From positions 129,054-193,053 of the forward strand of contig JAPLCF010000036.1 of NCBI GenBank assembly GCA_026392355.1: a stretch of DNA of 64,000 bases. The letters are read 5' to 3'. A program made the translations under genes and the position numbers. This DNA is from Actinomycetota bacterium. Lineage in GTDB: Bacteria; Actinomycetota; Thermoleophilia; Gaiellales; F1-60-MAGs149. Every line of letters starts with the position of its first letter. Position 1 is the stretch's first letter. Below the pieces are notes generated by a model, which did no database searches, had not been told where the DNA came from, and saw only the letters and a list, made by a program, of their open reading frames with translations. This document shows positions 48,258 to 63,420 of this stretch, piece by piece.

Positions 48258-48323
48258 GACATTTTAGATCCGGATCCGATTTGTCCCTCAGCGGGACAGA
48301 ATGGATCCGGATCCAGAATGTCC
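48257..48323. terminator. Long imperfect hairpin between convergent genes, containing GGATCCGGATCC
   Basis: GGACATTTTAGATCCGGATCCGATTTGTCCC-tcagc-GGGACAGAATGGATCCGGATCCAGAATGTCC. About 26 of 31 positions pair. Each end touches a stop codon. Confidence 0.45.
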
Positions 48324-49456
48324 TACAGCCCGAGGCTGCGGGCGATCACGAGGCGCTGCACCTCGTTGGTGCCCTCGCCGATCTCGAGCACCTTCTGGTC
48401 GCGGTAGATACGCGAGATCGGGTACTCGTCCATGTAGCCGTAACCGCCGTGGATCTGGACGGCCTCGTTGACCGCGCGGTTCGACGCCTCGCCGGTGTAG
48501 AGCTTCGCGATCGCAGCCTCCTGCGCGTACGGGCGGCCCTGGTCCTTCAGCCACGCTGCGCGGTAGACCAGCGCACGGGCTGCGGCGAGCTCGACGGCCA
48601 TGTCGGCGAGTTTGAACTGGATCGCCTGGAACTTCGCGATCGGCCGGCCGAACTGGTTGCGCGACTGCGCGTACGCGAGCGAGAGGTCGTAGGCGGCCTG
48701 CATCGTGCCGAGGCCCATCGCGGCGATCGACACGCGACCGCCATCGAGGATCTGCAGAAACTGCTTGAAGCCCACGCCGCGCGGGCCGAGCAGGTTCTCC
48801 TCGGGCACGAGCACATCGGCGAACGTCAGCTCGCGCGTATCGGAGGCGTGCCAGCCGATCTTGTGCAGCGGTGCGCTCTGCGTGTACCCCGGCGTGCCGT
48901 TGGGCACGATGATCGTCGAGATCTCGTCTTCCCCGGTCCGCGTCGTGATCGTCACCAACTTGGTGATGTCGGTGCCCGAGTTGGTGATGAACATCTTGGA
49001 GCCGTTGATCCGCCACTGGCCATTCTCGAGCTCGGCGTGCGTACGCGGGTTGCCCGCGTCGGAGCCAGCCTCGGGCTCGGTCAGACCAAAGGCCGCAAGA
49101 CGCTGGCCCGAGACGAGCTCCGGCAGCCACTGCTCCTTCTGGGCATCGGTGCCAAAGAGGTAGATCGGCATCGTGCCAAGCGACGTGTGCGCGGCAACGG
49201 TCACGCCGACGGAGGCGTCGATGCGCGTCAGCTCCTCGACCGCGATCGCATAGAGCAGCGTGTCGCCACCTGCCCCGCCGATCGCCTCGGGGAACGGAAT
49301 GCCCATCAGCCCGAGCCCCGCCATCTCCTCGACGATCTCGTACGGGAAGCGATGCTCGCGATCGATCTCCTCCGCGATCGGCCCGATCCGTGTCTCGGCG
49401 AAGTCGCGCACTACGGCGCGGAAGTCTTCGTACTCAACTGGCAGATCGAGATCCAT
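48323..49456 (-). CDS. Acyl-CoA dehydrogenase (isovaleryl-CoA dehydrogenase-like)
   Basis: 377-aa ACAD with GLTEPEAGSD and C-terminal IYEGTNE-like EIGEGTNEVQRLVIAR. Convergent with the carboxylase cluster. Confidence 0.85.
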   Translation of the reverse strand: MDLDLPVEYEDFRAVVRDFAETRIGPIAEEIDREHRFPYEIVEEMAGLGLMGIPFPEAIGGAGGDTLLYAIAVEELTRIDASVGVTVAAHTSLGTMPIYLFGTDAQKEQWLPELVSGQRLAAFGLTEPEAGSDAGNPRTHAELENGQWRINGSKMFITNSGTDITKLVTITTRTGEDEISTIIVPNGTPGYTQSAPLHKIGWHASDTRELTFADVLVPEENLLGPRGVGFKQFLQILDGGRVSIAAMGLGTMQAAYDLSLAYAQSRNQFGRPIAKFQAIQFKLADMAVELAAARALVYRAAWLKDQGRPYAQEAAIAKLYTGEASNRAVNEAVQIHGGYGYMDEYPISRIYRDQKVLEIGEGTNEVQRLVIARSLGL

Positions 49457-49547
49457 CGGGCGCTCCTCGCGAGGGGCGCGTCACTCGCGCCAATGGCGGC
49501 AGCATATCGGGCACCCCGCGTCCTGAGCGTGACGCCCGACTGCGCGT

Positions 49548-51056
49548 ATGCTCCCGGCTGTGACCCGCGTCAACGGCAGTGGCTCCCCCAGAATCGCGAT
49601 CATCGGTGCCGGCTTTAGCGGCATCGGCATGGCGATGCGCCTCAAGCAGGCGGGCATCACCAGCTTCACGATCTACGAGGCGGCGCCCGAGGTTGGCGGC
49701 ACGTGGTTCCACAACTCGTACCCCGGCGCGGCCTGCGACATCGGCTCGCACCTGTACTCGTTCTCGTTCAAGCGCAACCACGAGTGGACGAAGACGTACG
49801 CCGGCCACGAGGAGATCCTCGAGTACCTGAAGGCGTGCATGCGCGAGGAGGACCTCTACCCGCAGACGCGGCTGAGCACCCCGATCGAAAGCGCCGCGTA
49901 CGACGACGCGTCGAGCACGTGGACGCTGACGACCGGCGATGGTGAGCAGATCGCGACCGACGTCGTGATCTTCGGCTGTGGCCAGCTCAACGAGCCGGTC
50001 CGCCCGAACATCCCGGGCCTCGACGACTTCCAGGGCCACATGTTCCACTCGGCCCGCTGGGACCACGAGTACGACCTGACGGGCAAGCGCGTCGCCGTGA
50101 TTGGCAACGGTGCGAGCGCGGCGCAGTTCGTCCCCGAGGTTGCCAAGGCGGCTGGGCACCTGACGGTGCTGCAGCGCTCGAACTCCTGGATCGTCCCGCG
50201 CCGCGACTTCCCGTACAGCGAGACGCAGAAGCGCCGCTTTCGGAAGCTCCCGGGCGTCGAGACGCTGCACCGGCTCGGCATCTTCTGGTTCAACGAGCAG
50301 GGCTTCCTCGCCTTCCGCCCCGGCCAGAAGTGGTGGGGCCTGATCCAGGGCTCCGACAAGGCCGAGGAATGGCAGAACATCGCACTGCGCCACCTCGAGA
50401 AGCAGGTGCCCGACCCGGAACTACGCGCCCGCCTGACGCCCGACTACGGCATCGGCTGCAAGCGCGTGCTGCTCTCGAACGACTGGTACCCCACGTTGCA
50501 GCGTGATGACGTCGACCTCGTCACCGACCGCATCACGCGTGTCACGGCCGACTCGATCGAGACCGAAACCGGTACTGTCGGCCCGCTCGACGCAATCATC
50601 CTCGGCACCGGCTTCGACTCGACGAAGTTCATGTCGACGGTGAAGATCACGGGTGCGGACGGCCGTGACCTCGCCAGCGCTTGGGCCGACGGCCCGCAGG
50701 CGCACCTTGGCATCACCGTCGCAGGCTTCCCGAATCTGTTCATGCTCTACGGCCCGAACACGAACCTCGGGCACGGCACGATCATCTTCATGATCGAGTG
50801 CCAGATCCGGTACATCCGCAAGTGCATCCAGAAGATGCGCCGCGACCACCTCAAGGTGCTGACGGTCAACCCGGCCGCGCAGGCGCGCTTCAACGACGAG
50901 CTGCAGCAAGACCTCGCCAAGTCGGTCTGGGCCAGCGGCTGCGCGTCCTGGTACGTGACGAGCGACGGCAAGGTGCTCAACAACTGGTCGGGCTTCATGC
51001 TCGGCTACTGGAAGCGCACCCTGCGGCCCGACTTTGACGACTTCATCACGGCCTAG
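49548..51056 (+). CDS. Baeyer-Villiger-type flavin-containing monooxygenase
   Basis: FAD motif IIGAGFSG, BVMO fingerprint FQGHMFHSARW and a second Rossmann motif VIGNGASA. Confidence 0.85.
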   Translation: MLPAVTRVNGSGSPRIAIIGAGFSGIGMAMRLKQAGITSFTIYEAAPEVGGTWFHNSYPGAACDIGSHLYSFSFKRNHEWTKTYAGHEEILEYLKACMREEDLYPQTRLSTPIESAAYDDASSTWTLTTGDGEQIATDVVIFGCGQLNEPVRPNIPGLDDFQGHMFHSARWDHEYDLTGKRVAVIGNGASAAQFVPEVAKAAGHLTVLQRSNSWIVPRRDFPYSETQKRRFRKLPGVETLHRLGIFWFNEQGFLAFRPGQKWWGLIQGSDKAEEWQNIALRHLEKQVPDPELRARLTPDYGIGCKRVLLSNDWYPTLQRDDVDLVTDRITRVTADSIETETGTVGPLDAIILGTGFDSTKFMSTVKITGADGRDLASAWADGPQAHLGITVAGFPNLFMLYGPNTNLGHGTIIFMIECQIRYIRKCIQKMRRDHLKVLTVNPAAQARFNDELQQDLAKSVWASGCASWYVTSDGKVLNNWSGFMLGYWKRTLRPDFDDFITA

Positions 51057-51073
51057 GCAGTACGGTTGCTTCC

Positions 51074-52702
51074 ATGAACCGACGCACTGTCATCTCCGGT
51101 GGGCCGATCCTCACGATGGGCGCCGAGATGCGCGCCGAGGCCGTCGCAGTTCTCGACGAGCGCATCCTCCATGTCGGCTCGCTCGAGGAGTGCCGAGATG
51201 CGGCAGGCCAGGGGTCGGTCGAGTTCGATCTCGGTGGCCGCACGCTGCTGCCGGGCTTCGTCGACGCGCATACGCACCCGCTGATGCTCGGCCAGTGCGC
51301 GGCGTGGGTCGACTGCGCGCCACCCGAGGTGACGACGATCGATGCGCTCGTCGAGATGCTCGGTCGTCGCCGCGATTCGCTGCCGCCGACTGCCGACGTC
51401 TGGGGCTTCGGTGTGCACCACGGCGACCTTGACGTGCGGCGCAATCCGGAGCGCACCGACCTCGACCGCGTCGCCACCGACCGCGTCGTCGCCGTGATGC
51501 ACCGCTCGGGCCACGGCGTGATGGTCAACAGCTACTGCCTGACGATGAACGGCATCACGAAGGACCTGCCGGATCCAGCTGGCGGCCGCATCGAGCGCGA
51601 CGAGCAGGGCAACCCGACGGGTGTCATGTGGGACGCCGCGATCGACTTGATCACCGGCCCCGAGGGTGTCAAGACACTCAACCACGGCCCCAATATCCAC
51701 ATCCCCGACGCCCCCGAGCGACTGGTCGACTTGCTCTGCAACGCGCAGACGATGCTGCTCAAGGCGGGCGTCACGTCGGTCACCGACTGTCAGGTGACGC
51801 GCCGCGAGATGGAGACGTACCTGCTGGCTCGTGACGACGGGCGCCTCCAGCTACGGGCCTCGATGCTCACGCTCTCGACACTGCTCGAGGTGCTCGTCGA
51901 GCTCGGCCTTCGCGCCCGCCTCGGCGACGACCACCTTGCCTTCGCCGGCCTCAAGCTCGACGCCGACGGCACGCTGACAGGGCTGACCGCGTACTTCGAG
52001 AGCGGCTATCGCTTCGACCCCTGCCACCACGGCCAGCTGTACCACGAGCCCGAAGAGCTACGGCGACTGATTCGCCGCGCCCACCGGTTCGGGCTGCAGA
52101 CGGGAACGCACGCGCAGGGTGACTCTGCCATCCAGATCGTCCTCGATGCCGTCACCGAGTCGCTTGCCGATGTCGACCGCAAGGATCACCGCCACCGCAT
52201 CGAGCACTGCGGCATGCCATCGCCCGACCAGATCCACCGCATCGCGGAGCTCGGCATCTACCCGGTCCCGCAGCCGACGCACGGGTATCTCGTCGGCGAC
52301 GCGCTGCTCGAGGCGCTGGGCGAGAGCGCCAACCGCTACAACCCCTACGGCGAGTTCCGCGACGCCGGCGTGCCGATCGTGCTCTCGTCGGACACGCCGG
52401 TCTCCGGCCCCGATCCGATCGAGGCGATCTGGGCGGCCGCGACCCGCGAGACGCGTTATGGCTCGACCCTCGGCACGCCCGAGCAGCGCATCTCGGTAGA
52501 ACAGGGCCTGCGCGGGTACACGATCAACGGTGCTGCTGCGACCAAACGCGACCACGTCGTCGGCTCGATCGAGCCGGGCAAGCTGGCCGACTTCGCGATC
52601 CTGACGGGCGATCCACTCGGAGTCGCGATCGACGACCTGCGCTCGATCCGCGTCGAAGACACCTGGGTCGACGGCGCGCCCGTCGACTTCAGCCGGCTCT
52701 AG
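51074..52702 (+). CDS. Amidohydrolase-3 family metal-dependent hydrolase
   Basis: LLPGFVDAHTHP metal-binding HxH motif and a 542-aa YtcJ-like architecture. Confidence 0.75.
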   Translation: MNRRTVISGGPILTMGAEMRAEAVAVLDERILHVGSLEECRDAAGQGSVEFDLGGRTLLPGFVDAHTHPLMLGQCAAWVDCAPPEVTTIDALVEMLGRRRDSLPPTADVWGFGVHHGDLDVRRNPERTDLDRVATDRVVAVMHRSGHGVMVNSYCLTMNGITKDLPDPAGGRIERDEQGNPTGVMWDAAIDLITGPEGVKTLNHGPNIHIPDAPERLVDLLCNAQTMLLKAGVTSVTDCQVTRREMETYLLARDDGRLQLRASMLTLSTLLEVLVELGLRARLGDDHLAFAGLKLDADGTLTGLTAYFESGYRFDPCHHGQLYHEPEELRRLIRRAHRFGLQTGTHAQGDSAIQIVLDAVTESLADVDRKDHRHRIEHCGMPSPDQIHRIAELGIYPVPQPTHGYLVGDALLEALGESANRYNPYGEFRDAGVPIVLSSDTPVSGPDPIEAIWAAATRETRYGSTLGTPEQRISVEQGLRGYTINGAAATKRDHVVGSIEPGKLADFAILTGDPLGVAIDDLRSIRVEDTWVDGAPVDFSRL

Positions 52703-52923: not shown

Positions 52924-53024
52924 CGCATCTCCGTCACCGTGTGACCGGCGCCACTTGACGCACCGTGGTTCCCCGCCACAATGACGAGGCGGCGGCACCT
53001 GCCGCACCGTGGAGAGGGGGCCGG

Positions 53025-53693: not shown

Positions 53694-55693
53694 ACCAACG
53701 ACGTGTGCTCTTCCGTGCGCGCGCGGCACTCAGCCGACTGCCGGGACGGCACGGGTTTGGTCTGATTCCCTGGATCGTGCCGTTGCTCTTCGGGCTGGCG
53801 GGCGCACCCGTCGCGACGGAAGGACCCGACGAGGCGGGTTGGATTCTCGCCATCAGCATCGCGCACGTCGCAGCCTGGATCGCACAGGGCATCGTGCTGC
53901 TCATCATCCGCAGGCGCGCGCTTCGCCTGCCGCCGACGCCGCGCGGCGGACTCGTCGCGATCGCCCTGTTCGCCCTGATTGGCGCGATCGGCGGAGTCGT
54001 CCAGGCCGCAGTACTCAGTCGCACGGAGCTTGCCGACCCGCCGCAATTCATCGCGCCCACCACAGTGGTGCTCTTCTCGATCCTGACCTGGGTCTGCACA
54101 GCCAGCATCGTCGCGTTTGCGTTCTCCTGGCGGGATCAGCTGGCTGACTCACTACGCGCGTCAGAGCTGCACGCAGCCAGAACGCGCGACGCTCTCGCCC
54201 GCTCCACGGCACTGGAGGCACAGCGCCGAGCCGTGGTTGCGCGCCTCCTACGCCAACACACGATCCCCGCACTGGCGGAGATTGATGCCGCCGTGCGTAA
54301 CACCTCAGGCACCGCGGCCGCACAGCAGGCTGCAGACGCGATTGAGCGCTTGGCGCGCGATGACATCCGCAGCGCCTCCCACCTACTGCATCCCGTCACC
54401 GCAGCACACTCCCTGCCATCGGCGCTGGCACTGGCCTCTCGCCTGTGTGGCCTTCCCGGCACCGGCAGTGGGATCGAGGCTGAGGTGCCGATCTCGCCGG
54501 ACGTCGGCGACCGCGTGACGCTGACGGTGTTGGACCTGCTGCTCGACGATGAACCGGCTCGCCCGTGCCCTCCGCTGCAGGCCGCCCTCAGTGCCGATCA
54601 CCGAACCGTCAGCATCACACTCGACCCCGAGCGGACTGTCTGCATCCCGCTTGAGGCCGATGCAAATACCGCAGTTGCCTTCACACCGACCCCGCGTTGG
54701 CACCAGATCGCGCCGGCCCCCTTCGGCATGCCCTGGGTCGCAATCGCGCTGCTGAATGCCTTCAGCGTGCTCGCGGCGACCCTCGCCGCGGGCTCGGGGC
54801 TCTGGCTCGCAGCATTCGCGGACATGGCGGTGATCACCGTCGGCACGGCAGCGCTCGACCGTCTGCTCCGCACGCACGCCATTCAGCGGCTCTCGGCCCG
54901 CCGACAATGGCTGCTGATCGCCGTCATCGTGGCCGCCATCGGCGCGGCCGCCGGCGCAGTATGGGGCACGATGATCGATGGCGAGACCGCGTCGCTGACG
55001 GTGTTGGGGCTCGTCTGCGCACTCAGCATGGGACTGTTCCTGCCGGGCATCCGCGTCTGGGCATCCGCCGTCCGTCGCCTGCGAGCCGACGTCGTGCTCG
55101 CCGATCTGGCGGTCGGTGCCTCAGCGGCCCGCCAACGTGTCCGCGACCTCGAGTCATCGACCGCCGCGGCTGAGGCGCTACACGCGACCGTGCAGAGCCA
55201 GCTACTGGGTGTCGCCGGTGCCATTGGCTCGGATGCGCCTGACGACCTGCGAGCAATGGCCCTCGGTAAGCTCGATGACGTCGTGCGCAGCGCACTGCCC
55301 GCTATCGCGACGCAGCTCGAGACGATCCTTCCCGAGGAGGAGATCGCATTGCTGGACGCACCCGCGTTGTCGTCGCTGTGGCCGGAGGTCGCCATCACGA
55401 TGCAGGTACCGAACAATCTGCCGCAGTCGGCACTCAAGCTGATCAACTCGGTGGTGGTCGAGGCCGTGGGCAACGCCGTGCAGCACGGGCATGCGGATGC
55501 GATCGATGTGCAGGCCACGCTGTGGCCCGGCGCATTGGAGATCACCGTCGAGGATGACGGCATCGGCGTCGATACGAGCGCGACCGACGGGCTCGGGCTG
55601 TCAGCAATTCGTTCGATCGCTAGCGAATTCTCCCTGCGCCCCGGGCCCGCTGGAGGTTCGCGTCTGGACCTGCGCCTGCCCTACTTCGCCTGA
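53690..55693 (+). CDS. Membrane sensor histidine kinase (HisKA_3-type), apparently internally duplicated
   Basis: GTGA-coupled to the regulator. There are two multi-TM blocks. The H-box-like EALHATVQSQLLG and a HATPase_c domain (VEAVGNAVQHG...VEDDGIGV...GLGL) occur only in the C-terminal half. Confidence 0.75.
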   Translation: MNQRRVLFRARAALSRLPGRHGFGLIPWIVPLLFGLAGAPVATEGPDEAGWILAISIAHVAAWIAQGIVLLIIRRRALRLPPTPRGGLVAIALFALIGAIGGVVQAAVLSRTELADPPQFIAPTTVVLFSILTWVCTASIVAFAFSWRDQLADSLRASELHAARTRDALARSTALEAQRRAVVARLLRQHTIPALAEIDAAVRNTSGTAAAQQAADAIERLARDDIRSASHLLHPVTAAHSLPSALALASRLCGLPGTGSGIEAEVPISPDVGDRVTLTVLDLLLDDEPARPCPPLQAALSADHRTVSITLDPERTVCIPLEADANTAVAFTPTPRWHQIAPAPFGMPWVAIALLNAFSVLAATLAAGSGLWLAAFADMAVITVGTAALDRLLRTHAIQRLSARRQWLLIAVIVAAIGAAAGAVWGTMIDGETASLTVLGLVCALSMGLFLPGIRVWASAVRRLRADVVLADLAVGASAARQRVRDLESSTAAAEALHATVQSQLLGVAGAIGSDAPDDLRAMALGKLDDVVRSALPAIATQLETILPEEEIALLDAPALSSLWPEVAITMQVPNNLPQSALKLINSVVVEAVGNAVQHGHADAIDVQATLWPGALEITVEDDGIGVDTSATDGLGLSAIRSIASEFSLRPGPAGGSRLDLRLPYFA

Positions 55694-55707: not shown

Positions 55708-56949
55708 CTACGAGCGCGAGGCGACGGGCAGTTCGCCCTGACGCGGCAGCTCGAGGCGCTCCCAGACGTCGGCCAGTCCGGCGATGAGCGCCTGGACGTC
55801 GGCATCGGTGTGGAGCGGGCTCGTCGTGATGCGGAACCGCTCGGTGCCGCGCTCAACCGTCGGGTAGTCGATCGGCTGCACGTACACGCCGTGATGGTCG
55901 AGCAGGAGCTTGGCGGCCTCGCGACAACGCAGCGGATCGCCAAGGATCACCGGGATCAGATGGCTGTCGGTGTCGAGCGTCGGAATGCCCGCCGCGTCGA
56001 TCAGGCCGTGCACCTCCGCTACGCGAGAGTGCAGTGCAATGCGCTCCACGTCGCTGGTGCGGAGGTGGCGGATGCTGGCATGTGCCGCTGCCACGACGAC
56101 CGGGGCGAGCGAGGTGGTGAAGATGAAGCCGGTGCCGTACGAACGGATCAGGTCGATCAGCCGCGCCGAACCCGTGATGTACCCGCCCATCGCACCGACG
56201 GCCTTGCCGAGCGTGCCCTGGACGATGTCGATCTCGCCCTCGAGGCCCTCACGCGCCACGACACCAGCACCCTCGGGCCCGTACATGCCGACGGCGTGTA
56301 CCTCGTCGACGAACGTGAGCGCGTTGTAGCGCTTGGCGACGTCGGCGAGCTCGGCGATCGGGGCGATGTCGCCGTCCATCGAGTAGACCGACTCGAACGC
56401 GACGACACGGGCGCGCGAAGGGTCCTCGTCGCGCAGCAGCTGCTCGAGGTGCGCGGCGTCGTTGTGCCGGAAGACGCGCACCGTCGCGCCGCTGCGACGC
56501 ATGCCCTCAATCATCGAGTTGTGGTTGTTGGCGTCGGAGTAGATGACGCACTCGGGCAGGATGCTGCCGAGGACGGCAAAAGACGTAAAGTTCGCGACCC
56601 AGCCGGACGAGAAGAGGAGCCCGGCCTCCTTGCGATGCCAGTCCGCGAGCTCGCGCTCGAGCGCCACGTGCATCACCGTGGTACCAGAGATGTTGCGCGT
56701 GCCGCCGCTGCCGGCGCCATAGGCCGATGCCTCAGTCACCGCCTCGATCACCGCGGCGTTGGCCGCCATGCCGAGATAGTCGTTCGAGCACCAGACCGCG
56801 ACCGTACGGGTCGTCCCGTCGGGTGCGTGCAGCATCGCGCTGGCCGTACCGGGGATGCGCTCGATCTCGGCAAACGATCGATAGCGGCCCTCGGTCTTCA
56901 GACGCTCAATGGCGTCATCGACGATGCCGGAATAGTCCACGGACGGCAC
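55708..56949 (-). CDS. hemA: 5-aminolevulinate synthase (alpha-oxoamine synthase family)
   Basis: ALAS-specific blocks [59 protein letters not shown] and [20 protein letters not shown]. Confidence 0.85.
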
Positions 56950-56987: not shown

Positions 56988-57842
56988 CTAGCCCGCGGCC
57001 CACGTGGACAGCGCCGTCCACCCGGCGGCCGTCGTGGTGGCGAGGTCGTAGAGGCTAAAGCCGTTGGCGCCGGCGTCGCGCGCGCCCCGCGCGGCGGCGT
57101 CAAGATTTGCTGCCGACAGCCCACCCGCAAGGCCGCTGATCACGTGCACTGGCAGCGCCTGATCGCCGGTCAGATCGCGTGGCTTCTGCGTGCAGCCAGC
57201 CGTCATCGTGTACATCGCCTGGGGGCTCAATTTGCGCGGTGCGTAACACATCGGCAGCACTGCGTCTGCGTTCTTCTGGATCTCCGCCCAGGGGAAGATC
57301 GGCCAGTAGTTACTGGTCGGATTCGGCGTGATTGCGCCGATCGGGGTTTGCGGATAGGTCGCGCGCAGCCATGCCACCAGGGCGCCAGCGCGCTGCGAGC
57401 GCAGCTTCGGATTCTTGACGTAGGTGGCCTCGATGTCGACCGCGACGCCGTCGACCGCCTCGGTTCCGCCGATCGCGAGCGCGGCAGCAAGCCGGCGCTG
57501 ATCCACCTTCGGCTTCTGGAAGCCCGGGAGGTACCACGGGACGACGCGAATGCCTGCGGCGTGCGCGAGCGTGACGAGCTGCTTCAGAGGGGCGGGGTTC
57601 ACAACGTCGACCTTGCTCTTCGCGTTAGCCGTCTCGACGTAGATGACGGAAACGCCCTGCTGCTGCGCGGTCGTGACAACGCTGGTCGGGTTCTTCTCGA
57701 GCGCATCCCAGATATCGATCCACACGCCGGTCCCCGAGAACACCGCGGCGCGGGCGGGCTCAGCTCCGGCCGTCGGAGCGACCAGACCAAGCGCGAGCGC
57801 GATCAGGGCGAGCAATGGGACGACGCGGCGCATGGCTCGCAT
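56988..57842 (-). CDS. Secreted hypothetical protein (TIM-barrel glycoside-hydrolase-like, DUF4015-like)
   Basis: Signal peptide MRAMRRVVPLLALIALALGLVAPTAGAEP. The function call is weak. Confidence 0.4.
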   Translation of the reverse strand: MRAMRRVVPLLALIALALGLVAPTAGAEPARAAVFSGTGVWIDIWDALEKNPTSVVTTAQQQGVSVIYVETANAKSKVDVVNPAPLKQLVTLAHAAGIRVVPWYLPGFQKPKVDQRRLAAALAIGGTEAVDGVAVDIEATYVKNPKLRSQRAGALVAWLRATYPQTPIGAITPNPTSNYWPIFPWAEIQKNADAVLPMCYAPRKLSPQAMYTMTAGCTQKPRDLTGDQALPVHVISGLAGGLSAANLDAAARGARDAGANGFSLYDLATTTAAGWTALSTWAAG

Positions 57843-57876
57843 CCTACGTGTGGTTCGGGATGGTGATCAGCCGTGT

Positions 57877-57980
57877 GAATGCTCCAAAGGGGTCAGACCC
57901 TTCTGGAACATGACGGCAATCCTCATAGTCGTGGAGACGTTCTCCATGTTCCAGAAGGGTCTGACCCCTTTGGAGCATTC
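57877..57980. repeat. MITE/REP-like palindromic element, copy B (perfect 36-bp arms, 32-nt spacer)
   Basis: GAATGCTCCAAAGGGGTCAGACCCTTCTGGAACATG ... CATGTTCCAGAAGGGTCTGACCCCTTTGGAGCATTC. The right arm abuts or overlaps the GntR stop codon (57979..57981). Confidence 0.75.
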
Positions 57981-58737
57981 ACGCACCGAGGTGATCGGCC
58001 AGCGAGCGTGCAGCCGCGGCCGCCTCGGCTTTCGGATCGACCGGCTGCTGCTGCGACTCCGCGTAGGCGAGCAGTGCCTGGCGGGCGCGGTTGCTGTGGT
58101 GCAGGAGCAGACGCGCGAGCTCGTCACCATCATCGGCGCGGATCGCAGCGATCATCTGATGGTGCTCGGACTGCGCGTGATCCTGCTCATTGAGCACGCT
58201 GACCGCGACCCGCGAGTACGAATCCATCAGCGTGAGCACGCGCCCGGCGGCATCGGCGAAGTACGGCATGCCGGACAGCCGGTGCAGCTCTTGGTGAAAG
58301 GTGTAGTTGCGGTCGGACCACGTCTCGGGATCCAGGTCGTCCATCGCGTCAACGAGCCCGCTCAGCAGCTCGAGGTCGGAGGCCGTGGTGTTGCTGACGA
58401 TGCTGGGTGCCATGTGCGACTCAAGCAGCGCGCGCAGGGTCCAGACCTCATCCACCTCGTGTGGCTCGAGCTCCGTAACCTTCGCGCCGCCGTCGTCGGA
58501 GAACGTCACGAGACCTTCGGCCGCTAGCGCGTGCAGTGCCTCGCGCACGGGAATGCGACTGACGCCCATGGCCTCGGCGATCGAGGCCTGGATCAGCGGC
58601 TGGCCGGGGGCGAGTAGTCCCTGACGGATGCCCTCCCGTAGGACCTCGGCAATCGCCGGCTTGCTGCCGGTGCGCGTCGTCTCAGCCTTGGCGTTCATAG
58701 CCAGCGATCGTACAGGGCTGCGGTCGGAAATGGGCAT
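57979..58737 (-). CDS. GntR family transcriptional regulator (FadR/FCD-type)
   Basis: HTH IQASIAEAMGVSRIPVREALHALAAEGLV plus a helical C-terminal domain. The start is either Met102 (58737) or Met115 (58698) of the track ORF. Confidence 0.75.
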   Translation of the reverse strand: MPISDRSPVRSLAMNAKAETTRTGSKPAIAEVLREGIRQGLLAPGQPLIQASIAEAMGVSRIPVREALHALAAEGLVTFSDDGGAKVTELEPHEVDEVWTLRALLESHMAPSIVSNTTASDLELLSGLVDAMDDLDPETWSDRNYTFHQELHRLSGMPYFADAAGRVLTLMDSYSRVAVSVLNEQDHAQSEHHQMIAAIRADDGDELARLLLHHSNRARQALLAYAESQQQPVDPKAEAAAAARSLADHLGA

Positions 58738-58746
58738 TTGCAATTG

Positions 58747-58758
58747 AGTGTATACACT
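58747..58758. promoter_or_regulatory. Perfect 12-bp palindrome AGTGTATACACT (GntR-type GT..TA..AC operator candidate)
   Basis: Centred in the divergent gap between the GntR gene and the hydantoinase gene. AT-rich within GC-rich DNA. Confidence 0.5.
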
Positions 58759-58816
58759 GTATGCTCTCGCAGCAAGAGCTGCCCTTCTGGCAGCGGGACG
58801 CAGGAGAGCAGCAACC

Positions 58817-61800
58817 GTGAAGCGCATCGGAGTAGACGTCGGCGGCACCTTCACCGACTTGATCCTCGTGGACGAGGAAGCCGGCAAGATCACCGTCGAC
58901 AAGGTCCCGTCCACTCCCGACGATCCGGCTCGCGGCGTGGTCGAGGGCATCAACCGCCTCTGCGAGAAGGCCGGCGTGCAGCTGTCGGAGATCGACAACC
59001 TCCTGCACGGCACGACCGTCGCCACCAATATCGCGCTCACGCATCAGGGTGCATCCGTCGGCCTGATCACCACCGAGGGCTTCCGCGACATCCTCCACAT
59101 CGCGCGCCACAAGAAGCCGCTCAACTTCTCGATCCAGCAAGACCTGCCGTGGCAGGCCCGCCCGCTTGTCAAGCGCCGCCACCGCCGCGTCGTCGCCGAG
59201 CGCGTGACCGCGCCGCACGGCGAAATCGTCACGCCGCTCGATGAGGACGCCGTCCGCCGCGAGGTGCGCCTGCTCAAGGAGTCGGGCGTCGAGGCCGTCG
59301 CCGTCTGCTTCTTGCACTCGTACCTCAACGGCGCGCACGAGCACCGCGTGTCGGAGATCATCTCGGAGGAGTTTCCCGAGGCCTACCAGTCGATCTCGAG
59401 CGATGTGATCCCGCTCTACCGCGAGTATGAGCGCTTCTCGACCGTCGCGCTCAACGCTTTCGTCGGCCCCAAGGTCTCCACGTACCTCGACCGCTTTGCG
59501 ACCGCGATGAAGGACGCTGGCTTCAAGCACGGCGTCCAGCTGATGCAGTCGTCCGGTGGCATGGCGACCGTCGAGTCGGCCTCACGCCGCCCCGTCAACC
59601 TGCTCATGAGCGGCCCCGTGGCGGGCCTGATCGGTGGCATCTGGGCGGGCAAGATGGCCGGCTACGACAGCGTCATTACCCTCGACATCGGTGGCACCTC
59701 CGCCGACGTCGGCGTGGCGGCTGGCGGCCAGATGCGCATGCGCCACCTGCTCGACACGAAGGTCGGCGACTACCAGGCGATGGTGCCGATGGTCGACATC
59801 GACACGATCGGTGCCGGTGGCGGCTCGATCGCGTACGTCGACGAGGGCGGCGTCTTCCGCGTCGGTCCGCAGTCGGCCGGTGCCGATCCTGGCCCCGCCT
59901 GTTACGACCGCGGTGGTACGGACCCCACGTCGACTGACGCCCAGGTCTTCCTCGGCCGCCTGCGCCCCGAGCGCGGCCTCGTCGGTGGTGGCCTCGCGCT
60001 CAAGCCCGAGCTCGCCAAGACGGTGATCGAGCAGCTGGCCGGCGAGGTCGACATGACGCCGGAGCAGGCCGCCCTCGGCGCCCTGCAGATCCAGAAGTTC
60101 GGCATGACGCAAAACATCGAGATCAACTCGGTGCGCCGCGGCTACGACCCGCGCGACTTCACGCTCGTCGCCGCCGGTGGTGCCGGCCCGCTGTTCTCCT
60201 GCGACGTCGCCCTCGAGCTCGAGATCCCACGCGTCCTCGTGCCGCCGCATCCGGGCATCGTTGCCGCGACGGGCCTGCTTGCCACGGACCTCCAGCACGA
60301 GTTCGTCGGCACGGAGCGCCAGGCCGTCGCCACGCTCGACGCCCCGCGCCTGCAGGCCAAGTTCGACGAGCTCGTCGCCCAGGCCGTCGGCCAGCTCGAC
60401 GCCGACGCGGTGCCCGAGGATCGTCGCCTGATCCGCCGCCTCGCCGACTGCCGCTACGCCGGCCAGGGCTACGAGGTGCGCTTCGACGTTCCCGCCGGCG
60501 ACCCCGGCCGCGCCGGCTGGACCGACGAGCTGGTCGAGGCGTTCCACATCGCCCACGAGGGTGAGTACGGCCACCGCTTCGACGCCCCGGTCGAGATCAT
60601 CAACATCCGCGTCGTTGGCATCGGCCGCATCGACGAGCTGAAGTGGCCCGAAGCCGAAGCCGGTAACGGCGACCTCTCTGCCGCACTGATCGAGACGCGC
60701 CCCGTCGTGTTCGACGTCGACGGTGACGCGCAGTCCTGCCCGACGCCGTTCTACGAGCGTGAGCACCTCAAGGCGGGCGACCGCATCGAGGGTCCGGCAA
60801 TCATCGAGCAGTACGACACGACGACGATCGTGCCCCCGGGCTTCGTCGTCGAAGTCGACACGTACGGCAACCTCGTGATCGACGTGTCCGCGCGCATCGA
60901 GGCCCGGCGCTCGAAGGGCGGCGATGCCGGCCTCGCGCAGCCGATCCTCATGCGCGTGATCGGCGGCGCGTTCAACGCCATCGCCAAGGAGATGGCGGGC
61001 GTGCTCTACCGCATGTCCTACTCGTCGATCATCCGCGAATCCGAGGACCTCGGCGCAGGCCTGTTCGACCCGCAGGGCAACAACATCGCAGAGTCCGACT
61101 CAACGCCGATGTTCATGGGCGCAATGCCGAAGATCGTCAAGGGCGTCATCTCCCTGCTGGGCGACGACATCCATCCGGGCGACATCATCCTGCACAACGA
61201 CCCGTACCTCGGCGCGACGCACTCGCCCGACGTCGCGATCGTGATGCCCGTCTTCCACGACGGCGAGCTGATCGGCTTCTCGGGTGCCTCCGCGCACCTG
61301 CTCGACATCGGCGGCGCCTTCCCGGGCCTCGCCATCGACCTGGTCGACAACTGGTCTGAGGGCAACATCTACCGCGCGGTCAAGCTGGCCGATAAGGGTG
61401 TCTGGCAGGAGTCGCTGTTCAAGCACATCCTCGAGAACACCCGCACTCCCACCCACAACCGCGGTGACATCGAGGCGATGATCGCTGCGTGCGAGCGCGC
61501 CAAGAATCGCTTCGCGGAACTCGCGGGCCGCTACGGCACTGAGGCTGTCTTGGGTGCCGCCAACCACTGGATGGACTACGCCGAGCGCATGCTCCGCCAG
61601 GAGATCGCGAAGGTGCCGGACGGCGAGTACGGCCCCGAGTACGGCTGGCTCGACGACGACGGCCGCAACCGCGGTGAGAAGCTGCCGATCAAGGTCGTCG
61701 TGCGGATCGAGGGCGACAAAATGGTCGTCGACCTGACGGGCTCGAGCCCCGAGGTACCGACCGGCTACAACTGCCCGTTCGAGGGCACGACCGTGTCCGG

Positions 61801-62689
61801 CATGACGTTCATTGCGCGCATGATGTTCCTCGACGAGGCGACGTTCCCGGTCTTCGTGCCGCAAAACGAAGGCATGCTCCGGCCGGTCGAGGTGATCGCA
61901 CCCGAGGGCACGATCTACAACCCGAAGTACCCGCGCGCCTGCTTCGCCCGCTTCTCGCAGGCCCAGCGCGCGGTCGACCTCGTGCTCCGCGCACTCGCGC
62001 CGGTGATCCCGAACCAAGTCACGGCCGGCAACTCGGCGCACATCCACTTCCTCTCCTACTCCGGCTACGTCGAGGAGGAAGGCGAGTACTGGGTGTACCT
62101 CGAGGTCGACGAGGGCTCGTATGGCGGTCGTCCCGATCGCGACGCGATGGACTCTGTCGACAACCTGATCGCCAACACGCGCAACAACCCGATCGAAGAG
62201 CTCGAGTGGCGCTTCCCGATGCGGACCGACCGCTACGAGCTGCGCGACGAGCCGGCTGCGGCGGGCAAGTGGCGCGGCGGCATCGGCATCGTTCGCGTCA
62301 ACACGTTCCTGACCGACACGATCGTCACCTGCGAGGGCGAGCGTCATGAGTCCGACCCGCCGTGGGGCATCTTCGGCGGCCACGAGGGCCTCAACGGCTC
62401 GATGGTGCGCAACCACGGCCGCCCCGACGAGGAGTCCTGGTACAGCAAGGTCACCGGCTCGCAACTGAAGGCCGGCGACAGCCTTCAGATCACCGTCCCC
62501 TCGGGCGGTGGCTACGGCGACCCGCTCGACCGCGACCCCGCGCTGGTTCGTGATGACGTCCTCGACGAGTTCACCACGCGTGACCTCGCCGAGCAGGACT
62601 ACGGCGTCGTGCTCGTCGGAGAGGGCCTCACCCTCGCCGTCGATCAGGACGCAACCGACCGCCTGCGCGCCGAAAAGCGCAAGGCCTAA
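58817..62689 (+). CDS. Fused hydantoinase A / hydantoinase B (N-methylhydantoinase / 5-oxoprolinase family, ATP-dependent)
   Basis: GTG start at Val24 of the track ORF, 10 nt after AGGAG. The N-terminus is RIGVDVGGTFTDL (HyuA). The C-terminal half is HyuB-like (DPILMRVIGGAF...). Total length is about 1290 aa. Confidence 0.85.
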   Translation: MKRIGVDVGGTFTDLILVDEEAGKITVDKVPSTPDDPARGVVEGINRLCEKAGVQLSEIDNLLHGTTVATNIALTHQGASVGLITTEGFRDILHIARHKKPLNFSIQQDLPWQARPLVKRRHRRVVAERVTAPHGEIVTPLDEDAVRREVRLLKESGVEAVAVCFLHSYLNGAHEHRVSEIISEEFPEAYQSISSDVIPLYREYERFSTVALNAFVGPKVSTYLDRFATAMKDAGFKHGVQLMQSSGGMATVESASRRPVNLLMSGPVAGLIGGIWAGKMAGYDSVITLDIGGTSADVGVAAGGQMRMRHLLDTKVGDYQAMVPMVDIDTIGAGGGSIAYVDEGGVFRVGPQSAGADPGPACYDRGGTDPTSTDAQVFLGRLRPERGLVGGGLALKPELAKTVIEQLAGEVDMTPEQAALGALQIQKFGMTQNIEINSVRRGYDPRDFTLVAAGGAGPLFSCDVALELEIPRVLVPPHPGIVAATGLLATDLQHEFVGTERQAVATLDAPRLQAKFDELVAQAVGQLDADAVPEDRRLIRRLADCRYAGQGYEVRFDVPAGDPGRAGWTDELVEAFHIAHEGEYGHRFDAPVEIINIRVVGIGRIDELKWPEAEAGNGDLSAALIETRPVVFDVDGDAQSCPTPFYEREHLKAGDRIEGPAIIEQYDTTTIVPPGFVVEVDTYGNLVIDVSARIEARRSKGGDAGLAQPILMRVIGGAFNAIAKEMAGVLYRMSYSSIIRESEDLGAGLFDPQGNNIAESDSTPMFMGAMPKIVKGVISLLGDDIHPGDIILHNDPYLGATHSPDVAIVMPVFHDGELIGFSGASAHLLDIGGAFPGLAIDLVDNWSEGNIYRAVKLADKGVWQESLFKHILENTRTPTHNRGDIEAMIAACERAKNRFAELAGRYGTEAVLGAANHWMDYAERMLRQEIAKVPDGEYGPEYGWLDDDGRNRGEKLPIKVVVRIEGDKMVVDLTGSSPEVPTGYNCPFEGTTVSGMTFIARMMFLDEATFPVFVPQNEGMLRPVEVIAPEGTIYNPKYPRACFARFSQAQRAVDLVLRALAPVIPNQVTAGNSAHIHFLSYSGYVEEEGEYWVYLEVDEGSYGGRPDRDAMDSVDNLIANTRNNPIEELEWRFPMRTDRYELRDEPAAAGKWRGGIGIVRVNTFLTDTIVTCEGERHESDPPWGIFGGHEGLNGSMVRNHGRPDEESWYSKVTGSQLKAGDSLQITVPSGGGYGDPLDRDPALVRDDVLDEFTTRDLAEQDYGVVLVGEGLTLAVDQDATDRLRAEKRKA

Positions 62690-62724
62690 CCCCACCCACA
62701 CGAACGACCCCAGGAGGAATACCC

Positions 62725-63420
62725 ATGAGCGAACTGCAGGAGATGCTCGACAAGATCTTCGCGGAGGACAGCGAGCTGTATCAGCAGCGCGGCTTCCAGC
62801 GGCGCATCGGCTTCGGCACGCGCCCCGCGATTCTCAACATCGATCTCGCCAACGCGTGGACGCACCCCGGCAACAAGTTCACGTGCGATCACATGGACAC
62901 GATCATCCCGGCCACCGAGCGCCTGCTCGAGGCGGCCCGCGCCAAGAACGTCCCCGTCGTGCACACCACCACCGCGTACAAGAAGACGACGCGCGGCGAG
63001 TGGAGCGACATGGGCCTCTGGCACAACAAGATCCCCGTCGATGTTCTCGAAGAGGGCTCGTGGGAGGCCGCGATCGACGAGCGCCTGCTGCGCGATGAGG
63101 ACCTCGTGATCTGCAAAAAGCGCGCCAGCGGCTTCCACGGCACGTACATGCAGGGCTTTCTGTCGGCGCACCGCGTCGACACGGTGATCGTGACCGGCGT
63201 GACGATGGCCGGCTGCGTCCGCCACACGGTCGAGGACGCCATCGCGTATGGCTTCCGCCCGATCGTCCCCCGCGAGTGCGTCGGCGACCGCGTGGCCGGC
63301 GTCGTGGAATGGAACCTGTTCGACATCGATGCCAAGTTCGGCGACGTCATGGGCGTCGACGAGGTCATCACGTACCTCAACGGCATCGAGCCGTTCGACG
63401 GCAACACCGTCGTCGCGTAA
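62725..63420 (+). CDS. Isochorismatase-family cysteine hydrolase (N-carbamoylsarcosine amidase-like)
   Basis: Candidate D-K-C triad context: ILNIDLANAW, ICKKRASGF and VTGVTMAGCVRHT. 231 aa. Confidence 0.7.
   Translation: MSELQEMLDKIFAEDSELYQQRGFQRRIGFGTRPAILNIDLANAWTHPGNKFTCDHMDTIIPATERLLEAARAKNVPVVHTTTAYKKTTRGEWSDMGLWHNKIPVDVLEEGSWEAAIDERLLRDEDLVICKKRASGFHGTYMQGFLSAHRVDTVIVTGVTMAGCVRHTVEDAIAYGFRPIVPRECVGDRVAGVVEWNLFDIDAKFGDVMGVDEVITYLNGIEPFDGNTVVA

Follow-up and report, generated by a model that had tools for sequence, protein, structure and literature searches.

A predicted classical 5-aminolevulinate synthase at a conserved locus in a Thermoleophilia sub-lineage of the Actinomycetota

The open reading frame described below, in the window (the whole 64-kb stretch of DNA that was analysed), was confirmed at the level of sequence to be a genuine 5-aminolevulinate synthase (ALAS) of the ordinary type. 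ALAS supplies the heme precursor in one step and is best known from Alphaproteobacteria and mitochondria. The reading preferred here, which is given a probability of roughly 0.7, is that this classical ALAS is a core gene of a Thermoleophilia/Gaiellales sub-lineage, acquired by an old transfer from an alphaproteobacterium-like source, vertically inherited since then and associated with no natural-product cluster. The enzyme would be PLP-dependent and would condense glycine and succinyl-CoA to 5-aminolevulinate (ALA), which would feed heme and other tetrapyrroles. Long ago, an alphaproteobacterium-like donor would have passed the gene horizontally to an ancestor of the sub-lineage, where it would since have been inherited as a chromosomal core gene under purifying selection, outside any natural-product cluster. 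What we infer from sequence comparison is the catalysis, the supply of ALA to tetrapyrroles, and how old the transfer is and which way it went; ALA from glycine and succinyl-CoA, destined for tetrapyrroles, is the most likely product, following an ancient transfer.

55708..56949, minus strand: predicted 5-aminolevulinate synthase, classical non-cyclising type; maximal ORF of 413 aa with a GTG start

A second in-frame GTG at 56940 would give a protein of 410 aa beginning MDYSG, compared with MDYNL in the Rhodobacter capsulatus (R. capsulatus) ALAS, and 410 aa is the length of many ALAS homologues. Because both the N terminus and the length fit, the true start is probably GTG 56940 rather than the start of the ORF.

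The relationship of the protein to the alpha-oxoamine synthases was studied with curated family models. The ALAS (EC 2.3.1.37) equivalog model TIGR01821 (NCBIfam) matched at 561.7 bits, well over its cutoff of 338.55, with residues 5-403 placed on positions 2-401 of the 402 in the model. The BioF model TIGR00858 (330.4 bits, cutoff 426.45) and the Kbl model NF005394 (295.7 bits, cutoff 460) stayed under their cutoffs, so the protein was assigned to neither family; the same held for TIGR01822, used as a test of Kbl/BioF membership (244.3 bits, cutoff 493), and for the serine palmitoyltransferase (SPT) models, which scored 208-245 bits against cutoffs of 500-670. Among solved structures, ALAS 7x98 scored highest at 444 bits, followed by 2bwn, the R. 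capsulatus ALAS, at 433 bits, with Kbl, BioF and SPT structures at 217 bits or less. The protein consists of one Aminotran_1_2 domain, about 400 aa in length.

When the protein was aligned to 2bwn, R21, N54, T83, N85, I86, S87, S137, H142, S189, D214, H217, T245, K248, T365 and R374 were all identical. These residues include the Schiff-base lysine K248 together with the PLP-binding residues H142, D214, H217, T245 and S189. The glycine determinants were also retained, T84, S88, N56 and R373 of the window protein being equivalent to T83, S87, N54 and R374 of R. capsulatus, and of these we take N54 and R374 (R. capsulatus numbering) to be the glycine-carboxylate binders. All four of R21, T83, N85 and I86, which bind the succinyl-CoA carboxylate in the structure from R. 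capsulatus (Astner et al. 2005, cited in PMC9356726), were kept. Thr83 and Ser/Ala87 have been described as determinants of glycine specificity (PMC9356726). At positions 83/87/149/365 the window protein carries T/S/M/T. Position 149 is Ile in R. capsulatus and Leu/Val in the cyclising ALAS enzymes (cALAS), and Met149 is also present in many alphaproteobacterial sequences of the tree described below. The T83/S(A)87/T365 signature was present in 15/15 sequences examined from the clade of the window gene and its sister group. The preliminary description had read the protein as a genuine ALAS and set it apart from Kbl and BioF, and the model scores and the residues shared with 2bwn support that assignment.

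Homologues 72-97% identical to the window protein (at least 23 clusters, hundreds of sequences) formed a monophyletic clade in 100/100 bootstrap replicates, and the grouping of this clade with a sister group at 59-63% identity was likewise recovered in 100/100. Clade members carry the names of Thermoleophilia, Gaiellales or Actinomycetota MAGs, and the clade, known from MAGs and metagenome contigs alone, was seen only in Thermoleophilia/Gaiellales-type genomes. These belong to actinobacteria of freshwater and soil that are uncultured, and a single variant recurs on 107 assembled contigs. Carriers of clade members include GCA_049433345.1, GCA_039742095.1, GCA_039742395.1, GCA_046766335.1, the assemblies of CAINDT01, JBIIFR01 and JAUMCA01 and the one with MEI6689582.1, while the sister group is represented in GCA_025360225.1 and on a 1.46-Mb contig in ERZ25039488. 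The sister group also lies in Thermoleophilia-like genomes, one of its neighbouring genes matching Thermoleophilia best. Outside the clade, no sequence of more than 63% identity was found, and an exact look-up of the window protein itself matched no record. The nearest outside relatives were alphaproteobacterial HemA proteins, and identity to cALAS, AlmA-type enzymes (~47%) and human ALAS2 was 46-48%. The labelled cALAS and AlmA references were taken from plasmid records, and the shortened second ALAS copy of Streptomyces NBC_01591 was left out of the references. A phage origin of the gene was considered and rejected, the best viral ALAS (from viral contigs) being only 53% identical.

The tree was built by neighbour-joining with Kimura distances, and since its backbone supports were about 0-20%, no claim is made on nesting inside or outside the Alphaproteobacteria. 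The median identity between the clade and the Alphaproteobacteria, 53.7%, was below the lowest value between alphaproteobacterial sequences in the sample (56.5%), and the clade was excluded by the alphaproteobacterial references in 61/100 replicates and included in 39/100. Because of these two results, the gene may have its origin outside the crown Alphaproteobacteria. The phylogenetic placement against HemA and cALAS that had been proposed at the outset thus gave a clade of its own at 100/100 with alphaproteobacterial HemA nearest to it, although the deeper branching was weak. NCBI already labels several of these MAG proteins 5-aminolevulinate synthase, and a literature search for ALAS in Thermoleophilia or Gaiellales returned no paper on these proteins.

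The surroundings of the gene were then compared between related loci (L numbers). The features of the window used in this comparison are as follows.

48323-49456, minus strand: acyl-CoA dehydrogenase (ACAD; Pfam), conserved flank
49548-51056, plus strand: FMO-like monooxygenase (Pfam), conserved flank
51074-52702, plus strand: Amidohydro_3 protein (Pfam), conserved flank
52965-53693, plus strand: LuxR-type response regulator (Pfam Response_reg/GerE)
53552-55693 (ORF), plus strand: histidine kinase (Pfam HATPase_c)
56988..57842, minus strand: predicted secreted 284-aa protein (signal peptide, then TIM barrel), 38 bp upstream of ALAS
57873..57983, no strand: long perfect palindromic hairpin between the GntR and 284-aa genes
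57979..59040 (maximal ORF), minus strand: GntR/FCD-family regulator (Pfam GntR and FCD)
58748..63420, plus strand: fused hydantoinase A/B (oxoprolinase-like, 1313 aa) and isochorismatase-family hydrolase (Pfam), the other conserved flank

A conserved order of hydantoinase, GntR regulator, ~280-aa protein, ALAS, amidohydrolase, FMO and ACAD was found in members down to 77-82% identity. The ACAD, FMO and Amidohydro_3 genes (48323..52702) lie in identical order beside ALAS in L082, L083, L085 and L120. On the other side, the hydantoinase/isochorismatase flank shares 83.6% nucleotide identity with L003 over 4.3 kb, and its genes are also present in L085 and L120. In many assemblies made independently from different samples, the ALAS gene sits mid-contig at this one locus, surrounded by actinobacterial genes. 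Its GC3 of 0.88 equals that of its neighbours and the genome background, and its dN of 0.134-0.136 falls within the 0.083-0.166 of the flanking genes and is matched by that of the ACAD/FMO/Amidohydro_3 flank, with dN/dS of 0.04-0.27. The gene is a syntenic, vertically inherited gene of the whole Thermoleophilia sub-lineage and is under purifying selection.

The genome had been described beforehand as actinobacterial in type, and this was upheld both by the closest loci, which belong to Thermoleophilia/Gaiellales MAGs, and by the fused fbiC and the cofC/cofD F420 genes carried in the window. Since F420 genes and actinobacterial flanks are found on the same contigs, it is unlikely that the ALAS contigs are mis-binned alphaproteobacterial DNA. 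The gene had also been said to stand alone, and the preliminary description had allowed that its reading would fail if the host lineage used ALAS routinely. The gene does lie outside any C5N cassette, but it is no isolated oddity, being syntenic in a Thermoleophilia sub-lineage, and routine use is partly what was found, given that the gene is vertical throughout that sub-lineage.

Partner and pathway genes were sought by Pfam scans and with the PS00455 pattern. No acyl-CoA (AMP-binding) ligase, amide synthase, PKS or NRPS was found in the 64-kb window, while the Streptomyces loci L086 and L087, used as positive controls, gave true AMP-ligase hits; the earlier statement that no ligase or amide synthase accompanies this ALAS therefore stands for the window. 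A lone six-frame match to PS00455 in the window was discarded as spurious, as it is out of frame with the response-regulator ORF that it overlaps. No heme or tetrapyrrole gene was found in the window or in 12 related actinobacterial loci, and because of this the pathway role of the ALAS is argued from the identity of the enzyme itself. Alphaproteobacterial hemA, too, is usually a stand-alone gene.

Other products are conceivable for an ALAS-like enzyme in an actinobacterium. The cALAS type is the commonest ALAS homologue in actinomycetes, with 87% of PCR-positive strains putatively encoding it (PMC4525017), and the window covers just 64 kb of the genome; the protein might then be a cyclising ALAS making the C5N unit (2-amino-3-hydroxycyclopent-2-enone), the genes for the ALA-CoA ligase and amide synthase lying in another part of the genome. 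However, in the two major producer groups the C5N genes, three in number, show tight linkage (PMC4525017), whereas no AMP-binding enzyme, PKS or NRPS lies in the window, and the cALAS markers T83S, I149L/V and T365S are replaced here by T, M and T. Genuine Streptomyces controls show S/L/S at these positions together with a neighbouring AMP-ligase, the S. clavuligerus cALAS, for instance, reading S/G/L/S at 83/87/149/365 beside such a gene. Identity to cALAS is 46-48% compared with 54% to alphaproteobacterial HemA, and a cyclising function is considered highly improbable. Homologues of AlmA, which uses serine rather than glycine with succinyl-CoA to give alaremycin-type ALA-analogue antibiotics, have been reported from C5-route members of Streptomyces, Bacillus and the Gammaproteobacteria (PMC9356726), and so a non-alphaproteobacterial 'ALAS' could in principle be of the AlmA type. 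Against this, the window protein has Thr and Ser, as ALAS does, where AlmA has its determinants Ser82 and Gly86, and an S82T substitution in AlmA lowered serine activity to 0.3% (PMC9356726). The AlmA cassette of N-acetyltransferase, oxidoreductase and MFS genes, present in Parageobacillus L088, is absent after the window gene, and the AlmA-type reference is only ~47% identical; an AlmA-like activity is given a minimal chance. The Parageobacillus hemA itself (pGEOTH01, L088), which lies in an alaremycin-like cluster, reads S/G/I/T at 83/87/149/365, and the reference signatures match the markers published in PMC4525017 and PMC9356726.

Another alternative is an alpha-oxoamine synthase with other substrates, either Kbl/BioF/SPT-like or using a new acyl-CoA, that might for example feed an aminoacetone-type microcompartment locus ~20 kb away. 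The family is mechanistically versatile, the syntenic block includes an RMM-type microcompartment (30-37 kb in the window, ~8 kb from ALAS in L120), and position 149 is Met and not Ile; but Met149 is shared with many alphaproteobacterial ALAS, the Kbl, BioF and SPT scores are far under curated cutoffs with the ALAS model far over its own, and the succinyl-carboxylate and glycine residues R21, T83, N85, I86 and S87 are kept, leaving this alternative a small chance. The classical Thr83/Ser87/Thr365 set, which differs from those of cALAS and AlmA, thus speaks against two of the roles suggested in the preliminary description, namely a C5N-type product and another 2-amino-3-oxo acid. Lastly, the gene could be a recent and sporadic horizontal import with no settled role, like the Streptomyces 'blue-branch' hemA, or a contaminating alphaproteobacterial fragment. 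Foreign classical ALAS genes in non-conserved context are documented in actinomycetes (PMC4525017, 'The Blue Branches'), and the present data all come from MAGs. In this case, the mid-contig position, which recurs at one locus across many assemblies made independently from different samples, a GC3 equal to that of the neighbours, a divergence that tracks the flanking genes, and identities of at most 63% outside the clade and 53% in viral contigs all point the other way. The synteny and the comparison of rates largely refute a recent import, and very little likelihood is left to it.

The ordinary ALAS preferred here most resembles alphaproteobacterial HemA (2BWN, 7X98), with which it shares a length of ~400 aa, a single Aminotran_1_2 domain, identical catalytic, PLP, glycine and succinyl-CoA residues and a stand-alone gene, at 50-53% identity to the structures and up to 57% to others. 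It differs in its host, which belongs to a Gram-positive-type class of Actinomycetota (Thermoleophilia), and in forming a separate clade at 100% bootstrap; in the Alphaproteobacteria, ALAS is the sole ALA route. The 'blue-branch' hemA genes of Streptomyces and Nocardia (Petrickova et al. 2015, PMC4525017) are likewise classical, non-cALAS, actinobacterial and free of a C5N operon, but they are sporadic and in non-conserved context, sometimes within a stretch of several kb that is the same as DNA of proteobacteria or Bacillus, indicative of recent transfer (PMC4525017), whereas the window gene is syntenic, ameliorated and vertical across its sub-lineage. The cALAS enzymes (AsuD2, ORF34, MoeC4 type; S. 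clavuligerus pCLA1, L086) share the superfamily and substrates, Actinomycetota hosts and ~46-48% identity with the window protein, but have Ser83, Leu/Val149 and Ser365 and a linked ALA-CoA ligase and amide synthase in place of Thr83, Met149 and Thr365 without such neighbours. AlmA, the alaremycin synthase (Kawaguchi et al. 2022, PMC9356726), is also ALAS-like, ~47% identical and found in non-alphaproteobacterial hosts in which the C5 route is expected; unlike the window protein, which has Thr/Ser and none of the cassette genes, it carries Ser82/Gly86, prefers serine and is accompanied by N-acetyltransferase, oxidoreductase and MFS genes.

In reviews and textbooks the Shemin route is given to Alphaproteobacteria and to the majority of eukaryotes other than plants, and the C5 route to all remaining bacteria (PMC10991733 Table 1; PMC11480375). 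The earlier remark that actinobacteria normally take the C5 route agrees with reviews, which give that route to Gram-positive bacteria (PMC10991733, Table 1). The ALAS genes known in actinobacteria either encode cyclising enzymes within antibiotic clusters or were imported recently and sporadically (PMC4525017). The present gene, by comparison, is a classical ALAS that an abundant, uncultured lineage of actinobacteria has long kept in a single chromosomal place. The predicted chemistry of the enzyme is ordinary, and the interest of the gene depends on whether the C5 route has been replaced or supplemented. The ALAS probably provides a second route beside GluTR/HemL, in which case the host would be a stable two-route organism, which would not be surprising. 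That ALAS is the only source of ALA, the C5 route having been lost, is a tentative possibility. Should GluTR/HemL be missing, bacteria would have exchanged C5 for Shemin a second time, independently; the case would serve as a natural experiment on the reasons for the switch and would help, as a new anchor, to root the ALAS/AlmA/cALAS tree. A fuller version of this idea, in which the Thermoleophilia sub-lineage swapped C5 for Shemin, as the first Gram-positive-type lineage known with a housekeeping ALAS, presumably combined with coproporphyrin-dependent heme synthesis ('Shemin + CPD'), and in which the ALAS clade lies outside the crown Alphaproteobacteria, is thought unlikely. If true, it would bear on why ALAS holders have been confined to the Alphaproteobacteria and on the place of origin of ALAS (the AlmA-seed hypothesis, PMC9356726).

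The immediate neighbours were as the preliminary description had given them: a histidine kinase gene runs convergently and has its stop at 55693, leaving 14 bp to the ALAS stop, and a protein with a signal peptide is encoded 38 bp upstream on the ALAS strand. The two-component pair is present in L001 (ALAS 95% identical) and L002 (92%) and absent from L082, L083, L085 and L120, where ALAS directly adjoins Amidohydro_3. The pair is thus a lineage-recent insertion between ALAS and the amidohydrolase, outside the ALAS unit.

The gene for the 284-aa protein is probably cotranscribed with ALAS, and the two are paired in L003, L082, L083, L085 and L120. The protein gave no Pfam match, even at E=10, and its 181 homologues are all hypothetical proteins of Gaiellales/Actinomycetota MAGs. 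An AF2 model made from the MSA reached a pLDDT of 91, against 35 for single-sequence AlphaFold, and was an 8x beta/alpha barrel, which Foldseek matched to GH164 (TM 0.67-0.70) and also to GH18, SleL and PslG. The predicted fold therefore resembles a glycoside-hydrolase-like TIM barrel, the matches being generic and pointing to no specific family. A functional module of ALAS and this protein was considered and rejected, because relatives of the 284-aa protein at ~51% identity sit elsewhere without an adjacent ALAS and the sister-group ALAS genes are preceded by a different, unrelated 243-aa gene. The protein is linked to ALAS by synteny alone, and both this neighbour and the two-component pair are incidental.

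Upstream of ALAS and on its strand lies the GntR regulator gene, from which the hydantoinase/oxoprolinase gene diverges. Because the regulator's orthologues are 232-252 aa long, its real start is probably near 58.7 kb. An orthologue occupies the equivalent position in L003, L085 and L120, with tandem 4x amplification in L120/L121.

The same block also includes genes for sarcosine-oxidase-like or DMGDH-like proteins, amine oxidases and a homocysteine S-methyltransferase, and in L084 ALAS is adjoined by a DMGDH-like gene; a link of ALAS to glycine-producing catabolism is suggestive only. The RMM-type microcompartment locus at 30-37 kb was a separate observation in this region, at ~20 kb from ALAS in the window and ~8 kb in L120.

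The hairpin between the GntR and 284-aa genes had a predicted RNA fold of -88.8 kcal/mol (z = -13), and comparison with Rfam returned only sub-threshold miRNA-hairpin artefacts. A related copy is present at 35283-35361, for a chance expectation of 0. The element is a REP/MITE-like intergenic repeat, and it possibly acts as a transcription barrier.

The ORF at 55708-56949 had been described as a true 5-aminolevulinate synthase (ALAS), distinct from Kbl and BioF, and this assignment was borne out by family models, solved structures and conserved residues. The translated protein scored 561.7 bits against the NCBIfam model TIGR01821 (5-aminolevulinate synthase; cutoff 338.55), which was covered nearly end to end, and stayed below cutoff for BioF (330.4 bits; 426.45), Kbl (295.7 bits; 460) and serine palmitoyltransferase (208-245 bits; 500-670). 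The top solved structures were all ALAS (7x98, 444 bits; R. capsulatus 2bwn, 433; human ALAS2, 377), while those of Kbl, BioF and serine palmitoyltransferase gave at most 217 bits. Mapping onto 2bwn, whose numbering is used below except for AlmA itself, revealed identity at the lysine that forms the Schiff base (K248), at H142, D214, H217, T245 and S189, which bind PLP, at N54 and R374, which bind glycine, and at R21, T83, N85, I86 and S87, which serve succinyl-CoA binding and specificity. The ALAS mechanism is established for the family and, because the catalytic residues are conserved, would be expected here: glycine would bind PLP as an external aldimine, which would be deprotonated, condense with succinyl-CoA in a Claisen reaction and be decarboxylated to ALA, and this ALA would feed tetrapyrrole synthesis. 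A normal ALAS is the best-supported reading of the sequence.

The kind of ALAS was explored at positions 83/87/149/365. Cyclising ALAS (cALAS) of C5N clusters are marked by T83S, I149L/V and T365S (PMC4525017), and AlmA, the serine-using enzyme of alaremycin synthesis, has Ser82/Gly86 where ALAS has Thr/Ser(Ala), its serine activity falling to 0.3% upon S82T substitution (PMC9356726). Labelled controls of the two types were taken from plasmid records, and gave S/G/L/S for the S. clavuligerus pCLA1 gene, which is divergent from an AMP-ligase, S/S/L/S for the Streptomyces NBC_01591 gene, and S/G/I/T for hemA of Parageobacillus pGEOTH01, downstream of which lie genes for an N-acetyltransferase, an oxidoreductase and an MFS protein. 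The window ALAS reads T/S/M/T. It thus has Thr83/Met149/Thr365 instead of the Ser83/Leu149/Ser365 of the S. clavuligerus cALAS, and Thr83/Ser87 instead of the Ser83/Gly87 of the AlmA-type Parageobacillus protein, whereas it differs from R. capsulatus ALAS (T/S/I/T) only at position 149, where Met is also frequent in alphaproteobacterial ALAS. The window ALAS therefore carries the classical, glycine-specific, non-cyclising signature. By every membership test that sequence allows the protein grouped with ALAS, and it fell outside cALAS, AlmA, Kbl and BioF by the tests applied for these; it belongs to the classical HemA-type family and would work as its members do.

The gene and its neighbours are arranged as follows.

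55708..56949, minus strand: ALAS, maximal ORF of 413 aa with a GTG start
52965-55693, plus strand: LuxR-type response regulator and histidine kinase, convergent on ALAS
56988-57842, minus strand: 284-aa signal-peptide protein, 38 bp upstream of ALAS on the same strand
Upstream of the 284-aa gene: GntR/FCD regulator (Pfam)
Divergent: fused hydantoinase A/B (oxoprolinase-like) and isochorismatase-family gene (Pfam)
Far side of the two-component pair: Amidohydro_3, FMO-like monooxygenase and acyl-CoA dehydrogenase (Pfam)

The ALAS ORF has a GC3 of 0.88, in line with other window genes. Its real start is probably a second in-frame GTG at 56940, since this gives MDYSG..., parallel to the MDYNL... 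of R. capsulatus ALAS, and a protein of 410 aa, as in many homologues. The preliminary description's picture of an ALAS convergent with a two-component system, adjoining a secreted protein and standing apart from any C5N ligase or amide synthase was recovered in full. When nearly every plausible gene of the 64 kb was scanned against Pfam, none proved to encode an AMP-binding ligase, an amide synthase, a PKS, an NRPS or a heme-pathway enzyme. A six-frame PROSITE AMP-binding scan, which detected the ligases of the Streptomyces control loci, gave one match in the window; it is out of frame with an overlapping response-regulator ORF and was taken as spurious. Between the GntR and 284-aa genes lies a perfect palindrome with a stem of ~39 bp (57873-57983; -88.8 kcal/mol, z = -13), with a second related copy at 35283-35361. 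Rfam returned only sub-threshold miRNA-hairpin artefacts for this element, which is likely a REP/MITE-like repeat of the genome.

The inheritance of the gene was studied by comparison with related loci. The order hydantoinase, GntR, ~280-aa protein, ALAS, then opposite-strand Amidohydro_3 and FMO genes and the acyl-CoA dehydrogenase (ACAD) recurs in full in L082/L083 (ALAS 79% identical), L085 (81%) and L120/L121 (82%); in L003 (77%) the ~280-aa/ALAS pair recurs with the GntR and hydantoinase genes. The two-component pair occurs only in the window and in its nearest relatives, L001 and L002; in the other loci ALAS directly borders the amidohydrolase gene, so the pair was inserted recently. Nei-Gojobori dN between the window and L082 or L085, respectively, was 0.136 and 0.134 for ALAS, 0.119 and 0.123 for the amidohydrolase, 0.151 and 0.166 for FMO, and 0.114 and 0.083 for ACAD. 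Since these values are alike and ALAS dN/dS is 0.04-0.27, ALAS has diverged at the pace of its flanking genes and is under purifying selection; with its host-like GC3, it does not resemble a recent import. The context of the 'blue-branch' classical hemA genes of Streptomyces is not conserved (PMC4525017), whereas that of the window ALAS is. In L120 (4977-9159) and L121 (4976-9159) four tandem copies of the GntR/FCD regulator precede the 281-aa gene and ALAS; 39-aa short 'ORFs' between the copies in L120 may be the same palindromic element.

No Pfam family matches the 284-aa protein, and its homologues number only 181, every one a hypothetical protein from the same part of Actinomycetota. AlphaFold with a 40-sequence alignment confidently predicted an eight-fold beta/alpha barrel (pLDDT 91, pTM 0.86), structurally nearest to glycoside hydrolases, with GH164 beta-mannosidase at TM 0.67-0.70, and also matching GH18 chitinase, SleL, PslG and generic TIM barrels; a D-G-x3-D-x-E motif is invariant in the family. 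The gene evolves faster than ALAS (dN/dS 0.31-0.42). A functional module with ALAS was considered and rejected, because relatives of ~51% identity sit elsewhere without ALAS nearby and an unrelated Gly/Pro-rich 243-aa protein precedes the more distant ALAS genes of the sister group (below); we conclude that the pairing is synteny.

Among the best 80 matches in species-representative genomes, only three were close: one at 95% in an 'uncultured actinobacterium' (Lake Loclat), one at 92% in a Gaiellales MAG (Lake Mendota) and one at 75% in a Thermoleophilia MAG. The remainder were alphaproteobacterial, at 51-56%. A collection of 5.8 billion proteins held a compact group at 72-97% identity (the window clade; 23 or more clusters at the 90% level, some of them holding 147-165 members, with a single sequence present on 107 contigs), a second group at 59-63% (the sister group), and then the alphaproteobacterial bulk at 54-58%. 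Named window-clade members are Thermoleophilia, Gaiellales, Actinobacteria or Actinomycetota MAGs. Together with the F420 genes listed here, which support the actinobacterial identity of the contig, these matches uphold the host proposed earlier.

Within 7996-12924, minus strand: cofD and cofC
9295-10494: F420-dependent luciferase-like oxidoreductase
10504-12924: fused FO synthase fbiC

Fused fbiC, cofC/cofD and an RMM-type microcompartment locus fit an actinobacterium.

Neighbour-joining trees (Kimura distances, MAFFT alignments, 100 replicates) recovered the window clade, and its union with the sister group, in 100/100 replicates each, and the R21/T83/S(A)87/T365/K248 signature was present in 15/15 sequences examined from the two. 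The wider clade also appears Thermoleophilia-like, because GlgX, a conserved neighbour of one sister-group ALAS (1.46-Mb contig), is among named sequences most similar to those of Thermoleophilia MAGs (51-54%) and next to those of other Actinomycetota, and sister-group loci have a GC of 69-73%. Median ALAS identity was 62.9% among Alphaproteobacteria (minimum 56.5%), 56.3% from sister group to Alphaproteobacteria, 53.7% from window clade to Alphaproteobacteria and 46-48% from window clade to cALAS, AlmA-type or human ALAS2. In the proposed placement against alphaproteobacterial HemA and Streptomyces cALAS, the clade was closer in identity to the former; the alphaproteobacterial references excluded the ALAS clade in 61 replicates and included it in 39, on a weak backbone. 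An old transfer from an alphaproteobacterium-like donor is the most economical reading; the window ALAS clade may branch outside crown Alphaproteobacteria. No viral ALAS closer than 53% to the window ALAS was found. Sister-group genes have their own conserved context (L092 9253-11697; L117 3171-5797), with the 243-aa secreted protein upstream, a divergent OmpR-type response regulator and kinase, and an ATC_hydrolase-family gene downstream.

As to role, the long persistence of the gene, at rates typical of core genes, speaks for an important function. Against this, no heme gene was linked to ALAS in any locus examined. Coexistence of ALAS with the C5 route (GluTR and HemL) is favoured, at a probability of roughly 0.6-0.7; loss of that route, leaving ALAS as the sole ALA source, is a tentative alternative. 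The surroundings of ALAS, namely a P450 operon, a DMGDH-like neighbour and glycine/methylated-amine genes, are suggestive. In the sister-group locus L081 (ALAS 60%; 1.46-Mb contig), P450, ferredoxin, ferredoxin reductase, Asp/Glu racemase and, last, ALAS are tightly packed on one strand as an apparent operon (6524-11203), an arrangement that might tie the supply of ALA to a heme enzyme. Methylated-amine/glycine metabolism genes recur round the ALAS block (window 765-5158 and 40645-44284; L084 666-7814, where a DMGDH-like gene directly adjoins ALAS): DAO-FAO_M-GCV_T dimethylglycine/sarcosine-dehydrogenase-like genes, sarcosine-oxidase-like genes, several flavin amine oxidases, a DDAH-like gene and a homocysteine S-methyltransferase. 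Their recurrence may hint at glycine-rich metabolism. In the window block, many genes would be expected to release glycine or act on methylated amines. Full-text searches turned up no publication dealing with ALAS in Thermoleophilia or Gaiellales, although several MAG proteins of the clade are already named 5-aminolevulinate synthase by NCBI; what is new here is the host and inheritance pattern of a classical ALAS.

Other loci were noticed in the window.

13548-14945, minus strand: argG (argininosuccinate synthase), interrupted by an in-frame stop
30062-37220, plus strand: RMM-type bacterial microcompartment (BMC) locus with class-III aminotransferase, aldehyde dehydrogenase, BMC shell proteins, APH-family kinase and SDR
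34054-34293, plus strand: EutN pentamer of this locus
39037-40593: amino-acid permease, part of the RMM-type set
44291-48257, plus strand: carboxyltransferase, enoyl-CoA hydratase and biotin carboxylase/BCCP set, adjoining an acyl-CoA dehydrogenase

Compared with E. coli ArgG, ~30 residues are missing at the argG stop, and the interruption marks a pseudogene or else comes from an error in the assembly. The RMM-type locus resembles the mycobacterial aminoacetone/1-amino-2-propanol microcompartment, and in L120/L121 no more than ~8 kb separates the same SDR-APH-BMC genes from ALAS. The carboxylase set, also present in L082, is methylcrotonyl-CoA carboxylase-like and, since it adjoins the acyl-CoA dehydrogenase, suggests a leucine/isovalerate-type catabolic block in the ALAS syntenic region.
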